This document shows, piece by piece, positions 36,801-51,800 of a stretch of 64,000 nucleotides of DNA. Source of the stretch: Escherichia coli. Lineage in GTDB: Bacteria > Pseudomonadota > Gammaproteobacteria > Enterobacterales > Enterobacteriaceae. The DNA lies in the NCBI RefSeq assembly GCF_050920415.1, contig NZ_CP169309.1; one strand, 5' to 3'. The position numbers were made by a program. Position 1 is the stretch's first letter. Each line of letters starts with the position of its first letter.

Positions 36801-39800
36801 CGTGCCTTCAAACACCGCCCCCGGCGTCTCGTCGCCAAAGATTTCGACCTGCATCTGCACCCGTGCTTTACGTCCGCGCGCCAGACGGTCGAGATCGCCG
36901 CTTAAGGCACCGAGGTCGGCTACCGCGTGTGGTTTACCGCTGATTGGTTTGCTGTAACGGATATGCGCATCAGCGAGAATAATGGTTCCGCCGAGGTGGC
37001 GTTCGCGCAGCATTAGCCAGATAAGCCCCCAACCGGTGAGCGTAGCCAGCGAGAATAAACTCCCGGCAAACAACGTATGATGCGGATTCTGATTGCCGGT
37101 TTCCGGCATGGTGGTGATAAATTTTTGCCCGGTATATTGCTGAATGCGCACGCCCATTTTTTCGCTTAGCGGGATATGTTCGTACCACGCCTGTTGCAGC
37201 TGCGCGCACCAGTCGCCGCGATGCAGAATGTCATCCAGAGTGGCGACAGGTTTTATCATCAAAAAATGGCGAATCGGCGTGGTGGTTGGCGTGGTGATTT
37301 CTCCCTGATTAACAAACCCCAGCTTGGCGAAAAACTCCACCGCGTCTTCGCGGGCGCTACAGGTCACGCGCTTAACACCTTCCTGACGCGCCACCGACTC
37401 CAGGGTCATCGCCATCAGCGTTCCTAACCCTTTGTCCTGCACGTCGGGATGAACGGCCATAAAGCGAATGGACGCTTCATTGTCGGCATTAATATACAGT
37501 CGGCCTACCGCCACCAGATTACCCTGCTCGTCGACGACCATCTGGTGATGCGCCATCGCATCCCACGCGTCGCGTTCCGAACCTTTCGGTTGATGCAAGG
37601 GCTTACGCAACATTTCCCAGCGAAACTGATAGTAACGCTCTAATTCTTCTTCTGTTTGTGGAACCCGAAGGTGATACATAGCGATACTCTCTCTTGTTTC
37701 CCGTGACAACCCTGGAAGCTGGCTCATACCTGCAACCAGAATGTCACGGGGCCATCATTGACCAGCGATACCTGCATATCCGCAGCGAAGCGTCCTGTTT
37801 GCGTGTTCATCTCTTGCTGACGGCAGCGTTCGACGAAATAGTCATATAACGCCTCTGCGCGATCCGGTGATGCGCCTTTGGAGAAACTTGGGCGCATCCC
37901 CCGTTCGGTATCTGCGGCGAGGGTAAACTGGGAAACCACCAGCACACTGCCGCCCGCCTGTTGCACGTTGAGATTCATCTTGCCTTCGGCATCGCTGAAG
38001 ATGCGATAGCCAAGCACGCGCTCGCACAGACGGTTTGCTTTCTGTTCGTCGTCATCCTTTTCGACACCCAATAACACCAAAAGTCCCGCGCCAATTTCGC
38101 CCGTCACTTCTCCCTCCACGGTGACGCTGGCACGGGTTACGCGTTGAATTAATGCAATCATGGTTCGTCGTCTTCTTCTTGTTCAGCTGCTTGTTTTAGT
38201 TTGCGGTATTCCCCGAGAGTGACAGTAATTTCCGCACCAAGCAAGACGATACACCATGTCCAGTAGACCCAAACAAAGAGAATGGGGATCACCGCCAGCA
38301 CACCGTAAATGAGCTGATATGAGGGGAACATGGTGATATAAAGCGCGAAACCTTTCTTTCCTGCTTCGAACAGGAGTGCGGCGACAAACGCGCCGACAAT
38401 CGCGTCGCGATTAGGTACGCGGATAGTAGGAACAATGCTGTACAGCAACCAGAAGGAGATCCACGACAACAGCAACGGAAAAATACGCAGCACGTTGTCG
38501 ATGACAGTATTGAGATCGCTCGCCCAGCGCAGGGAGAGCAAATAGGAACTGATCGCCAGACTGGCCCCTGCCAACAGCGGCCCCAGCGTTAAAATCATCC
38601 AGTACACGGCAAACGAGTAAATTTTGGGTCGCGCTCGTTTACTGCGCCAGATGGTATTCAACGCGCTATCGATGGAGTACATCAACAATAACGCCGTGAC
38701 GATCAGCCCGCACGCCCCGACGGCGGTCATTTTGTTGGAATTGGCGACAAACTGTTCGATATATCGCTGGATAACATCGCCAGTAGCAGGCAGAAAGTTG
38801 GCAAAAATAAAGTGACGCAACTGAATGCTGACGTCCGAAAACATGGGAAACGCGGCGAAAAGCGCAAAAACAACGGCAACCAGCGGCACTAATGAGAGCA
38901 ACGACACATAGGCAAGATTACCTGCCAGGGTTGTCATATTGTCCTCATCAATGCGTTGCCAGAGTAGTTTTAGCCAGGCCCATAGTGGACGGGTACGGTG
39001 CCTGGCTTTGTCCTGAATGGTTTTTAGCATAACACCTTCACGAAATAGTCCGGGATGGTGGTTTTATCTTTCACCAGAATGCTGGTAATGCCTAGCTGAT
39101 TAGCTCCTTCTATATTATCGGCGTTATCGTCGAAAAAGACCGTATCGCTGGGTGAAAAACCTTCCGCCTGCAAAACATGCTGGTAAATTCGTGCTTCAGG
39201 TTTGCGCATCCCCAGATCTTGCGACATATAGATATGGTCAGCAGCATCACGAATTTCCGGGTATTCCTCCGGCCAGAAGGTGGTATGTAGGCGGTTAGTA
39301 TTGGAAAGCACCACCACACGATGACCCTGCTCACGCAGTTTATGCATGATGGCGATCACTTCCGGGCGCAGCGCGACAAACACCGCCTGCCAGCCGTGGG
39401 AAAACTGCTCATAGCTTAGCGGTAGAGCCATCTCATGACACAGCGCCTCTGCGAACGCTTCGTCGCTAATTTCCCCACGCTCATGCTGATGAAACGCCTC
39501 GCCCATGTGGAAACTCTTCTTAAGCGTAGCCAGGGGAACACGCGTTAAATCGCTCCAGGCTCCCAGCACACGGTTAAAGTCGATATCGACAATCACATTA
39601 CCTAAATCAAAGATATAGAGCATTTTTGCCTCCTTTCGCGCCACAAGAAATTAACTGTAGCGGGAAAGGATGGGTTTGGCTATGTGGTCAGGTATGAAGC
39701 AAGGTCAACGGTCACAAAATTCTACGCGTCTTCCTGGGGAAGGATGATTTCAATTTGGCTGTCTTGTAAGCGTGATTTTAGCGCAGCGGGCGGCAGCTCG

Positions 39801-48800: not shown

Positions 48801-51800
48801 ACAACGATGAGTCACATCACAACGGAAGATCCGGCTACTTTACGTCTGCCCTTTAAAGAGAAACTCTCTTACGGTATCGGCGATCTGGCCTCTAACATCC
48901 TGCTGGATATCGGCACGCTTTATCTTTTGAAGTTTTATACCGACGTTCTGGGGCTGCCCGGCACCTATGGCGGTATTATCTTTTTGATCTCGAAATTCTT
49001 TACCGCCTTTACCGACATGGGTACCGGCATCATGCTCGATTCCCGGCGTAAGATCGGTCCAAAAGGCAAATTCCGCCCTTTCATTTTTTACGCCTCATTC
49101 CCGGTCACTCTGCTGGCGATCGCCAACTTTGTCGGCACACCGTTTGATGTCACCGGTAAAACGGTGATGGCCACTATTCTGTTTATGCTTTACGGGCTGT
49201 TTTTCAGCATGATGAACTGCTCTTATGGCGCAATGGTCCCCGCTATTACCAAAAACCCCAACGAACGCGCATCACTGGCGGCATGGCGTCAGGGTGGCGC
49301 TACATTGGGCCTGCTGCTTTGTACGGTGGGATTCGTGCCGGTTATGAATCTTATCGAGGGTAATCAGCAACTTGGCTATATCTTCGCCGCCACGCTGTTT
49401 TCACTATTCGGCCTGCTGTTTATGTGGATCTGCTATTCGGGCGTGAAAGAGCGTTATGTCGAAACGCAACCTGCAAATCCGGCGCAAAAGCCAGGCTTGT
49501 TGCAATCTTTCCGTGCGATTGCCGGTAACCGCCCGCTGTTCATTTTGTGCATTGCTAACCTCTGTACCTTAGGGGCATTTAACGTCAAGCTCGCCATTCA
49601 GGTCTATTACACCCAGTACGTGCTTAACGATCCCATCCTGTTGTCATATATGGGATTTTTCAGCATGGGCTGTATTTTCATCGGCGTGTTCCTGATGCCT
49701 GGTGCAGTCAGACGTTTTGGTAAGAAGAAGGTCTATATCGGCGGCCTGCTGATTTGGGTGCTGGGCGATCTGCTCAACTATTTCTTCGGCGGCGGCTCGG
49801 TCAGTTTTGTGGCGTTCTCCTGCCTGGCATTCTTCGGCTCGGCGTTTGTTAACAGCCTGAACTGGGCGCTGGTTTCCGACACCGTCGAGTACGGCGAGTG
49901 GCGCACCGGCGTTCGTTCGGAAGGTACGGTCTACACCGGCTTCACCTTCTTTCGCAAAGTATCTCAGGCGCTGGCAGGTTTCTTCCCAGGCTGGATGCTG
50001 ACGCAAATCGGCTATGTGCCAAACGTGGCGCAGGCTGACCATACCATCGAAGGTTTACGCCAGCTGATCTTCATCTACCCAAGCGCACTGGCGGTAGTCA
50101 CCATTGTTGCGATGGGTTGCTTCTACAGTCTGAACGAGAAAATGTACGTCCGCATTGTTGAAGAAATAGAAGCCCGTAAACGCACGGCATAAATAATAAA
50201 CAACGCCCTGCGGGGCGTTATAAGGAGTGATTATGTCTGACCATAATCCACTGACATTAAAACTGAATCTGCGGGAAAAAATCGCTTATGGCATGGGCGA
50301 CGTCGGTTCGAATTTAATGCTTAGCATCGGCACTCTGTATCTCCTCAAATTTTATACCGATGAATTAGGGATGCCTGCTTACTATGGCGGGATTATCTTT
50401 CTGGTGGCAAAATTCTTTACCGCGTTTACCGATATGCTCACCGGATTTTTACTCGACTCGCGGAAAAATATTGGGCCTAAAGGCAAATTTCGTCCCTTTA
50501 TTTTATATGCAGCGGTTCCGGCGGCGTTAATTGCAACGCTCCAGTTTATCGCCACCACTTTTAGTTTGCCGATTAAAACGACGATTGCCACCGCGCTGTT
50601 TATGATGTTTGGACTTTCATACAGTCTGATGAACTGCTCGTATGGCGCGATGATCCCAGCAATTACCAAAAACCCCAATGAGCGCGCGCAGCTTGCGGCT
50701 TACCGCCAGGGTGGTGCAACCATAGGGCTATTGATTTGTACCGTAGCATTTATTCCACTGCAGTCGCTTTTTTCTGACTCCACTGTCGGTTATGCCTGCG
50801 CGGCACTGATGTTCTCCATTGGTGGCTTTATTTTTATGATGCTGTGCTACAGAGGCGTCAAAGAGCATTATGTGGACACGACGCCAACCGGACATAAAGC
50901 CAGTATTCTCAAATCTTTTTGCGCGATATTTCGTAATCCGCCATTGCTGGTTTTATGCATTGCTAACCTGTGTACCCTGGCGGCATTTAATATCAAACTG
51001 GCAATTCAGGTCTATTACACCCAGTATGTGCTGAATGATATTAATTTATTGTCGTGGATGGGATTCTTCAGTATGGGATGCATCCTCATCGGCGTATTGC
51101 TGGTGCCATTAACTGTAAAATGTTTTGGTAAAAAACAGGTTTATTTAGCTGGCATGGTGCTGTGGGCGGTGGGGGATATCCTGAATTATTTCTGGGGCAG
51201 TAACTCTTTCACTTTCGTCATGTTCTCTTGTGTCGCCTTTTTTGGTACGGCCTTTGTAAACAGCCTGAACTGGGCGCTGGTACCGGATACCGTAGATTAT
51301 GGTGAATGGAAAACCGGTATTCGTGCCGAAGGTTCTGTTTATACCGGTTATACCTTCTTTCGTAAAATTTCAGCCGCACTTGCTGGCTTCTTGCCAGGCA
51401 TTATGCTGACGCAAATCGGTTATGTTCCCAACATCGCGCAAAGCGATGCAACATTACAGGGTTTGCGTCAGCTCATTTTTATTTGGCCTTGTGCGCTGGC
51501 GATAATTGCTGCATTGACGATGGGATTCTTTTACACGCTCAATGAAAAACGTTTTGCGTTAATTATTGAGGACATCAACCAACGTAAAAATAAAGAGATT
51601 GAGACAAAAGAAAAAACTGCTTCTGTAACGTTATAAATGTCAATAGCCGCTATTTCCATCCTGATGGGTGGCGGCCCCCCTACGTTAAAAAAATGGACTT
51701 ATTATGAAAAAGATTAATGCAATAATTTTATTATCTTCTCTGACCTCTGCCTCGGTATTTGCTGGCGCATACGTCGAAAACAGGGAGGCATATAATCTCG

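Follow-up and report, generated by a model that had tools for sequence, protein, structure and literature searches.

Sulfoquinovose, a plant sulfo-sugar, is among the most abundant organosulfur compounds, and the sulfoglycolytic Embden-Meyerhof-Parnas (sulfo-EMP) cassette of Escherichia coli serves as the reference for how it is degraded in the gut; the 2,3-dihydroxypropane-1-sulfonate (DHPS) excreted there feeds bacteria that produce hydrogen sulfide. In this work we analyzed the E. coli range 39722-51636 of a stretch of 64,000 nucleotides (RefSeq assembly GCF_050920415.1, contig NZ_CP169309.1; hereafter the window), for which a complete sulfoglycolysis regulon with its repressor, a divergent promoter and an extra TauE-like gene had been predicted from the sequence. 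The closest described system is the K-12 cluster ompL-yihOPQRSTUV-csqR (Denger et al. 2014; Sharma et al. 2021, PMC8006165), with which the window shares the chromosomal site, the ten genes, their order and their strands. Binding of the K-12 repressor CsqR to the yihU/V spacer and to the csqR promoter has been established by genomic SELEX (systematic evolution of ligands by exponential enrichment), gel shifts and atomic-force microscopy, and the repressor is released by sulfoquinovose, its glyceride and sulforhamnose (PMC8249747, PMC8006165, PMC12608037). Start sites, CRP binding and CsqR binding are published for these K-12 regions (PMC5816610, PMC8249747, PMC8006165, PMC12608037). The E. coli cassettes have been divided into a 'long' and a 'short' form (Kaznadzey et al. 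2025, PMC12608037), of which the window carries the long one.

In comparison with K-12, identity is 96-100% for the encoded proteins and 98% for the control spacer, and the site of CsqR mapped by chromatin immunoprecipitation with exonuclease digestion (ChIP-exo) is present. The differences are a ~1-kb TauE segment in place of ~142 bp, a 23-bp deletion between yihS and yihR, and an unusually deep synonymous divergence (dS 0.12-0.34). With function transferred from K-12, we regard the cassette with high confidence as a sulfo-EMP system of E. coli that is complete and almost certainly functional. The system is already known and was read correctly by the original prediction, every defining feature that a sequence can test being present. 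The count of TauE-bearing long forms, the comparative case for TauE in place of YihP and the delineation of an 83-bp regulatory core go slightly beyond the literature and leave this classification unchanged.

The 11.9-kb range corresponds to the sulfo-EMP (yih) cassette, and the chromosome of E. coli MFDS1022581 matches it at 100% identity. In the NCBI annotation of this identical record (NZ_CP169399.1), the gene ends are the same as in the window, and the genes are listed as csqR, yihV, yihU, yihT, yihS, yihR, 'sulfite exporter TauE/SafE family protein', yihQ, yihP and yihO, with yihX, yihY and dtd before the cassette and ompL and yihN after it. The chromosomal site between yihX and yihN is that of K-12, and the open reading frames listed for the window have identical frames. 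The predicted limits of the range are right (39722 is the csqR stop and 51636 the yihO stop), as are the order, strands and functions of the genes and the divergence of yihW-yihV from the yihU side, with the families backed by Pfam and NCBIfam; the divergent spacer likewise falls exactly at the predicted 41438-41604. All genes originally assigned to the cluster were found, and ompL, which is counted as a cluster member in PMC8006165 and PMC12608037 and completes the published ten-gene cluster, had been left out.

The claim that no gene is inactivated was borne out by a full alignment check, in which 0 gaps, 0 frameshifts and 0 premature or internal stops were detected; in particular, none of the end-to-end protein alignments with K-12 orthologs (cassette genes and ompL) contains a gap. 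Each cassette gene has an ATG start, a Shine-Dalgarno-like purine-rich sequence and a length divisible by three. The Pfam and NCBIfam profiles identify the expected families with full-length coverage, including the YihR/YihQ and sulfolactaldehyde reductase equivalogs above their cut-offs, and both GPH transporters match TIGR00792 over its full length (533 bits for YihP and 528 bits for YihO, cut-off 231). All 28 catalytic and sulfonate-pocket residues taken from Sharma et al. 2021 (PMC8006165) are retained in YihQ, YihS, YihV, YihT and YihU. The isomerase YihS keeps the catalytic H248 and H383, the sulfonate pocket R55-Q362-Q379, and F239. The kinase YihV keeps the catalytic D244 of the GXGD motif, the sulfonate triad K27-N109-R138, and D13, S95, G241 and G243. 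The class I aldolase YihT retains the Schiff-base K193 together with S226, S227, R253 and A26, and the reductase YihU retains the sulfonate pocket N174-S178-R123 plus K171. In YihQ, the nucleophile D405 and the acid/base D472 are present along with the sulfonate pocket R301-W304-Y508. The YihR motifs IHGL, GIHPY and AVEP, which carry the conserved His, His and Glu of mutarotases (family described in PMC5902678), are the same as in K-12.

The ratio of nonsynonymous to synonymous divergence (dN/dS, Nei-Gojobori) from K-12 is between 0 and 0.12 for every gene (0.011 for yihP, and zero amino-acid changes at a dS of 0.12 for csqR). Such low ratios at dS values as deep as those found here imply that the two cassette alleles are old and that every protein has been kept by selection. 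At the nucleotide level, the cassette with ompL (39722-52396) is 93-96% identical to K-12, an unusual divergence within one species, whereas the flanking genes fabY, dtd, yihY and yihX (36738-39623) are 96.5-98.9% identical to K-12, with dtd and yihY at 98-99%. An identity of at least 99% to the window over 11.9 kb was found in 7 of 4049 genomes and, for csqR-yihT, in the source strain alone. This divergence fits the recombination-prone locus proposed in PMC12608037.

The activity of each protein is assigned here from sequence, and by transfer from K-12 the proposed pathway would run as follows. Sulfoquinovose or its glyceride would be imported by OmpL and YihO, the glycoside would be hydrolyzed by YihQ, and the anomers would be equilibrated by YihR. 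YihS would convert sulfoquinovose to sulfofructose, which YihV would phosphorylate; cleavage by YihT would then yield dihydroxyacetone phosphate and sulfolactaldehyde, and the latter would be reduced by YihU to DHPS and exported. A main physiological substrate other than sulfoquinovose is suggested by the lactose-related route proposed for the yih genes, which draws on lactose-responsive yihV and yihT promoters and on the similarity to a lactose cassette of Bacilli (PMC5816610). We consider it highly improbable for this locus, since each of the five enzymes with structural studies retains its sulfonate-binding residues, selectivity for sulfo-sugars is documented for the K-12 enzymes (PMC8006165), sulfoquinovose induces the K-12 cassette with a log2 fold change of at least 5 (PMC12608037), and the cluster has gained a permease of a sulfonate family. 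The features of the locus are collected in Table 1.

Table 1. Genes and regulatory features of the yih cassette in the window (identities are to K-12)
Feature	Position	Strand	Details
csqR (yihW), DeoR-family repressor	39722-40507	-	261 aa; 261/261; HTH_DeoR + DeoRC (Pfam)
csqR promoter region	40508-40600	-	overlaps yihV 3' end; 13-mer ACAAAAAGTGACA at 40545-40557
yihV, sulfofructose kinase	40541-41437	-	298 aa; 292/298 (98%); PfkB family
divergent yihV/yihU control region	41438-41604	.	167 bp; 164/167 identical
highly conserved regulatory core	41468-41550	.	83 bp, CATTTTAATT...AAAAAGTGACGGCTGTCAATTTTTTGACGATAAATTACAAATACGATCAAAAACAGACAA
palindrome AAAAAGTGAC-GGCT-GTCAATTTTT	41491-41514	.	candidate CRP-like site or CsqR operator
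equivalent of K-12 in vivo CsqR (YihW) ChIP-exo footprint	41518-41558	.	1 mismatch in 41, at 41555
second copy of 13-mer ACAAAAAGTGACA	41570-41582	+	adjoins yihU start
yihU, sulfolactaldehyde reductase (forms DHPS)	41605-42501	+	291/298 (98%); NF012005 597 bits, cut-off 348
yihT, sulfofructose-1-phosphate aldolase	42525-43403	+	288/292 (99%); DeoC/LacD family
yihS, sulfoquinovose isomerase	43419-44660	+	409/413 (99%); GlcNAc_2-epim fold family
GC-rich 10-bp-stem hairpin, yihS-yihR spacer	44678-44700	+	predicted fold; end of yihUTS unit
yihR, sulfoquinovose mutarotase	44779-45681	+	292/304 of aligned part (96%); NF011719 611 bits, cut-off 251
TauE/SafE (TSUP) family permease gene	45742-46617	+	accessory, absent from K-12; PF01925
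yihQ, sulfoquinovosidase (GH31)	46725-48761	+	663/678 (98%)
yihP, GPH-family transporter	48807-50192	+	458/461 (99%); putative DHPS exporter in K-12 annotation
yihO, GPH-family transporter	50233-51636	+	460/467 (99%); putative sulfoquinovose importer
ompL, outer-membrane porin	51704-52396	+	230 aa; 224/230 (97%)

The search for the repressor operator that had been proposed for the divergent spacer was carried out, and this region proved to be essentially that of K-12, with three substitutions (41451, 41555 and 41584) and with the K-12 CsqR ChIP-exo site included. The tetramers TGAC/GTCA occur in it seven times, compared with 1.3 expected. In K-12, YihW gives a single strong ChIP-exo site at 4071641-4071681 with a signal/noise of 168 (PMC8464067 supplement file 5); the coordinates (U00096.2) were shifted by an offset of 1977, and their transfer to the window was confirmed by sequence. 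The start sites published for K-12 (PMC5816610) can be transferred as well: that of yihV (-25/-27) to 41462-41464, behind the -10 element TAAAAT, that of yihU (-62/-63) to 41542/41543, behind TACGAT, and that of csqR (-27/-28) to 40534/40535, with TATAAA as the -10 element. The ChIP-exo segment lies directly over the yihU promoter, covering both its start site and its -10 element.

The regulator itself has the DeoR helix-turn-helix and DeoRC sensor domains, 100% amino-acid identity to K-12, and 11 of 11 ligand-site residues predicted by docking (PMC10991401). As both CsqR and, essentially, its target DNA are identical to those of K-12, regulation should be transferable with confidence. In this model, expression would be set at the yihV/yihU spacer and at the csqR promoter, where CsqR would bind cooperatively and be released by sulfoquinovose, sulfoquinovosyl glycerol and sulforhamnose, and catabolite control would be supplied by CRP. 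Binding of K-12 CsqR to the region upstream of csqR is mentioned in PMC12608037, citing Shimada 2019; the conservation of the corresponding stretch extends to Salmonella, Citrobacter, Rahnella and Pantoea.

Alignment of the spacers of the orthologous loci in E. whittamii, Enterobacteriaceae RIT691, Salmonella, Citrobacter, Rahnella, Pantoea, Yersinia and Klebsiella allowed us to delineate a core of 83 bp. Klebsiella aside, the identity of this core is 88-95% in all of them, RIT691, Salmonella, Citrobacter, Rahnella, Pantoea and Yersinia included. The corresponding values in these genomes are 60-79% for yihV and yihU and 22-77% for the outer spacer. A non-coding core that is more conserved than the adjacent genes points to a dense regulatory module, and together with the in vivo CsqR site it narrows the location of the operator. 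In the Klebsiella cluster (L013 449-10801), CsqR is 71% identical and the yihV/yihU spacer (20% identity) is devoid of the conserved core, which suggests a joint divergence of the regulator and its operators. A hybrid cluster was observed in Yersinia massiliensis (L012 2309-10828): CsqR, YihV, YihU, YihQ and two GPH transporters are kept, YihS and YihT are replaced by a Fucose_iso_C isomerase and an aldolase of the class II fructose-bisphosphate aldolase family, as in sulfo-EMP2, and the control core is 89% conserved.

Several repeated elements within this control DNA are candidate operators. The 13-mer ACAAAAAGTGACA has one copy between the -35 and -10 elements of the csqR promoter and the other beside yihU, outside the ChIP-exo interval. 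The 10-mer AAAAAGTGAC has exactly three copies in the 64 kb (40547, 41491 and 41572), all in yih control DNA, compared with 0.19 expected, and none of 100 shuffles reached three; two of the three, those by csqR and yihU, lie within the 13-mer. The copy upstream of csqR coincides in part with the end of yihV, namely its last seven codons and stop (SFLSLFV*). This motif was derived from the spacer itself and has no copy inside the ChIP-exo interval; it was rejected as the established CsqR operator and is kept as a candidate. A one-mismatch copy (AAAAAGTGGC) at 46577-46586, at the 3' end of tauE and ~140 bp upstream of yihQ, may be a chance occurrence, as ~4.7 such matches are expected per window. 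The ChIP-exo segment is linked to the yihU-proximal DNA by the repeat pairs ATAAATTACAAA with ATAAATGACAAA and CAAAAACAGACA with CAAAAAGTGACA, from which the candidate repeats ATAAAT(T/G)ACAAA and CAAAAA(CA/GT)GACA can be read, each present once within the ChIP-exo site and once immediately to the right of it. The palindrome formed by AAAAAGTGAC and GTCAATTTTT has conserved arms and a variable center across genera; it is centered ~40 bp from both transferred start sites (yihV and yihU) and resembles a CRP site with one good half. Its identification as a CRP site from sequence alone was rejected (3 of 10 mismatches to TGTGA-N6-TCACA, for which we estimate ~1 chance match per 167 bp), and the CRP reading by conservation and geometry is suggestive only.

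Downstream of the control region, the yihS-yihR spacer (44661-44778) is 23 bp shorter than in K-12, and the hairpin that follows yihS (Table 1) is itself followed by a second one. Where the K-12 spacer has a partly duplicated CCCTCTCCC element, the window has a single perfect 10-bp-stem hairpin (CCCTCTCCCC AAA GGGGAGAGGG). A yihUTS unit has been published for K-12, in which RNA polymerase binds the yihS/R spacer (PMC5816610), and the hairpin after yihS would fit the end of this unit. From yihR to ompL, no convincing intrinsic terminator was found, none of the hairpins there being followed by a U-tract, and yihR-tauE-yihQ-yihP-yihO-ompL may therefore be co-transcribed. These transcription units, and the co-induction of yihR-tauE-yihQPO-ompL, are predictions; in K-12, all of its counterpart genes are induced by sulfoquinovose to the extent given above (PMC12608037). 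A search of 39000-53000 revealed no Rfam family at the gathering thresholds. In the ompL-yihN spacer (52397-52486), inverted GCCGGATG...CATCCGGC elements similar to repetitive extragenic palindromes were noted.

The TauE-family gene interrupts this distal part of the cassette. Relative to K-12, ~990 bp (about 45676-46667) stand in place of ~142 bp of unrelated sequence, with one break point at the final two codons of yihR and the other 56 bp upstream of yihQ. The K-12 spacer as a relic of tauE was considered and rejected: its last ~56 bp alone are homologous to the window, and the rest bears no significant resemblance to tauE or to the sequences of other genera.

Some observations weigh against a fully functional cassette. 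The ~142 bp replaced are the first part of the 198-bp yihR-yihQ spacer of K-12, and if they hold a yihQ promoter, expression of yihQPO-ompL could differ here. YihR has 13 substitutions relative to K-12, the most in the cassette, and the highest dN/dS (0.12). No spacer contains a sigma-70 consensus match of at least 9/12, and such sites are fewer overall than the mean of the shuffles, so that the promoters are known solely by transfer from K-12 (PMC5816610). With the DNA before yihQ replaced by the TauE segment, the distal half (yihQ-yihP-yihO-ompL) might be expressed differently or poorly, and uptake and hydrolysis could then limit growth on sulfoquinovose glycosides. Two hairpins between tauE and yihQ (46626-46647 and 46670-46683; fold z = -3.8 for the region) and the lack of a detectable consensus promoter upstream of yihQ fit such a defect. 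However, neither hairpin has a U-tract, and neither thus resembles an intrinsic terminator; K-12 shares the 56 bp immediately upstream of yihQ, with one of the hairpins among them. The presence of the TauE form in 1295 genomes and the dN/dS of 0.01-0.05 for yihQ, yihP and yihO argue for continued use, and the induction of the whole K-12 cassette despite a single strong CsqR peak at yihU/V (PMC12608037, PMC8249747) is consistent with read-through or a shared signal. We consider impaired expression of the distal half quite unlikely, and a functional sulfo-EMP cassette remains our reading of the locus.

The predicted extra TauE-like gene was confirmed, but it is a common E. coli variant rather than a peculiarity of the window: it is carried by 1295 of 5426 complete E. 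coli genomes (24%), O157:H7 strains and enterotoxigenic E. coli (ETEC) H10407 included. The K-12-type long junction is found in 2634 of these genomes (about 49%). A csqR-yihT segment with at least 90% identity is present in 4035 genomes, and 1327 (24%) have only a version that is ~67% identical; no match to the cassette was found in the other 64. This ~67%-identical csqR-yihVUT form, annotated as sugar kinase and aldolase, corresponds to the 'short' cassette of Kaznadzey et al. 2025 (PMC12608037), and our counts agree with their split of about three-quarters to one-quarter. TauE is unmentioned by these authors, whereas here the long form splits into K-12-type and TauE-type junctions, the latter making up about a third of long cassettes. 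A full-text literature search did not find TauE in the E. coli yih cluster, an earlier mention in Denger et al. 2014 not being excluded.

The TauE protein matches PF01925 with 121.8 bits (gathering threshold 32.6) over profile positions 2-235 of 237 (residues 23-248), and by the crude measure of Kyte-Doolittle hydropathy it has seven overlapping peaks of at least 1.6, or about six separate hydrophobic segments. The gene has the same orientation as its neighbors; it follows yihR after 60 bp and is preceded by a ribosome-binding site of its own. Compared with E. whittamii and ETEC H10407, TauE differs by one residue at 35-39 nucleotide differences (dN/dS 0.008-0.009). The G+C content across 45500-46999 is 42-49%, compared with about 52-57% in the neighboring genes, which suggests horizontal acquisition.

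Comparison of yih clusters from other genomes shows TauE at two different positions, either in the yihR/yihQ gap or after yihQ. In E. whittamii it occupies the same place as in the window, between yihR and yihQ. The clusters of the Klebsiella pneumoniae complex and of RIT691 have the same enzymes and the same divergent csqR-yihV / yihU layout, and their TauE orthologs are 80-82% identical, but these are located after yihQ, not before it. In Klebsiella, TauE occupies the yihP slot, and the single GPH transporter resembles YihO (71%) more than YihP (64%). No TauE gene is present in the yih clusters of Salmonella, Citrobacter, Pantoea and Rahnella.

Outside yih, TauE orthologs with 77-85% identity are found at the end of operons in Edwardsiella anguillarum, Leminorella grimontii and Vibrio owensii (L006, L005 and L007, respectively, about 1000-10900). 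These operons encode an SDR dehydrogenase, an SMP-30 lactonase, an IlvD/Edd dehydratase, an HpcH aldolase and a mutarotase, as well as a YihU-like reductase of the beta-hydroxyacid dehydrogenase family, a LacI-family regulator and a Na+/solute symporter. The list of steps matches the Entner-Doudoroff type of sulfoglycolytic pathway (sulfo-ED) of Pseudomonas putida SQ1 and of Rhizobium leguminosarum (PMC12890257), and by their domain content the three loci appear to be sulfo-ED-like. Unlike sulfo-ED, they have a YihU-like reductase and no SlaB aldehyde dehydrogenase, which suggests a DHPS-forming sulfo-ED variant in these three genera, a predicted pathway distinct from that of the window.

In other sulfoglycolytic clusters, TauE-type permeases have been proposed to export sulfonates (PMC8873060, PMC7491151). 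The Cupriavidus necator TauE and the exporters predicted in sulfoglycolytic transaldolase (sulfo-TAL), sulfo-EMP (Arthrobacter) and sulfo-ED clusters belong to the same PF01925 and, like the window gene, lie inside catabolic clusters for sulfonates or sulfo-sugars; they are proposed to export sulfite or sulfolactate, whereas the pathway of the window ends in DHPS. On the strength of this genomic association, the most probable role of TauE is that of a second exporter of DHPS, the C3-sulfonate end product, with a function overlapping that of YihP. On the stronger proposal, that TauE is a dedicated DHPS exporter which was repeatedly recruited to clusters for sulfoglycolysis and is able to take over from YihP, as in Klebsiella, we are evenly divided.

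To be set against a role in DHPS export, the preference of the Klebsiella GPH transporter for YihO over YihP is modest, a literature search found no transport assay for any sulfoglycolytic TauE, and the Pfam name 'sulfite exporter' is ill-fitting for a pathway that releases no sulfite. The gene might instead serve the export of sulfite or another anion or the import of a sulfonate, or be an unrelated passenger, as would agree with the name of its family, the absence of an NCBIfam equivalog match for the protein, the low G+C content of the gene with the horizontal acquisition that it suggests, and an intact YihP, which leaves no exporter apparently missing. We regard this as somewhat unlikely, given that TauE travels with two types of sulfoglycolysis cluster and replaces yihP in Klebsiella, that it is under very strong purifying selection, and that it is placed and oriented, with its own ribosome-binding site, as a member of the gene series.

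An intact copy of the cassette by itself adds nothing new to the picture of sulfoquinovose breakdown. If TauE is indeed a DHPS exporter, however, the role of YihP in DHPS export, which has long been assumed but is just 'putative' in the K-12 record, and the division of labor between YihO and YihP would need to be re-examined.

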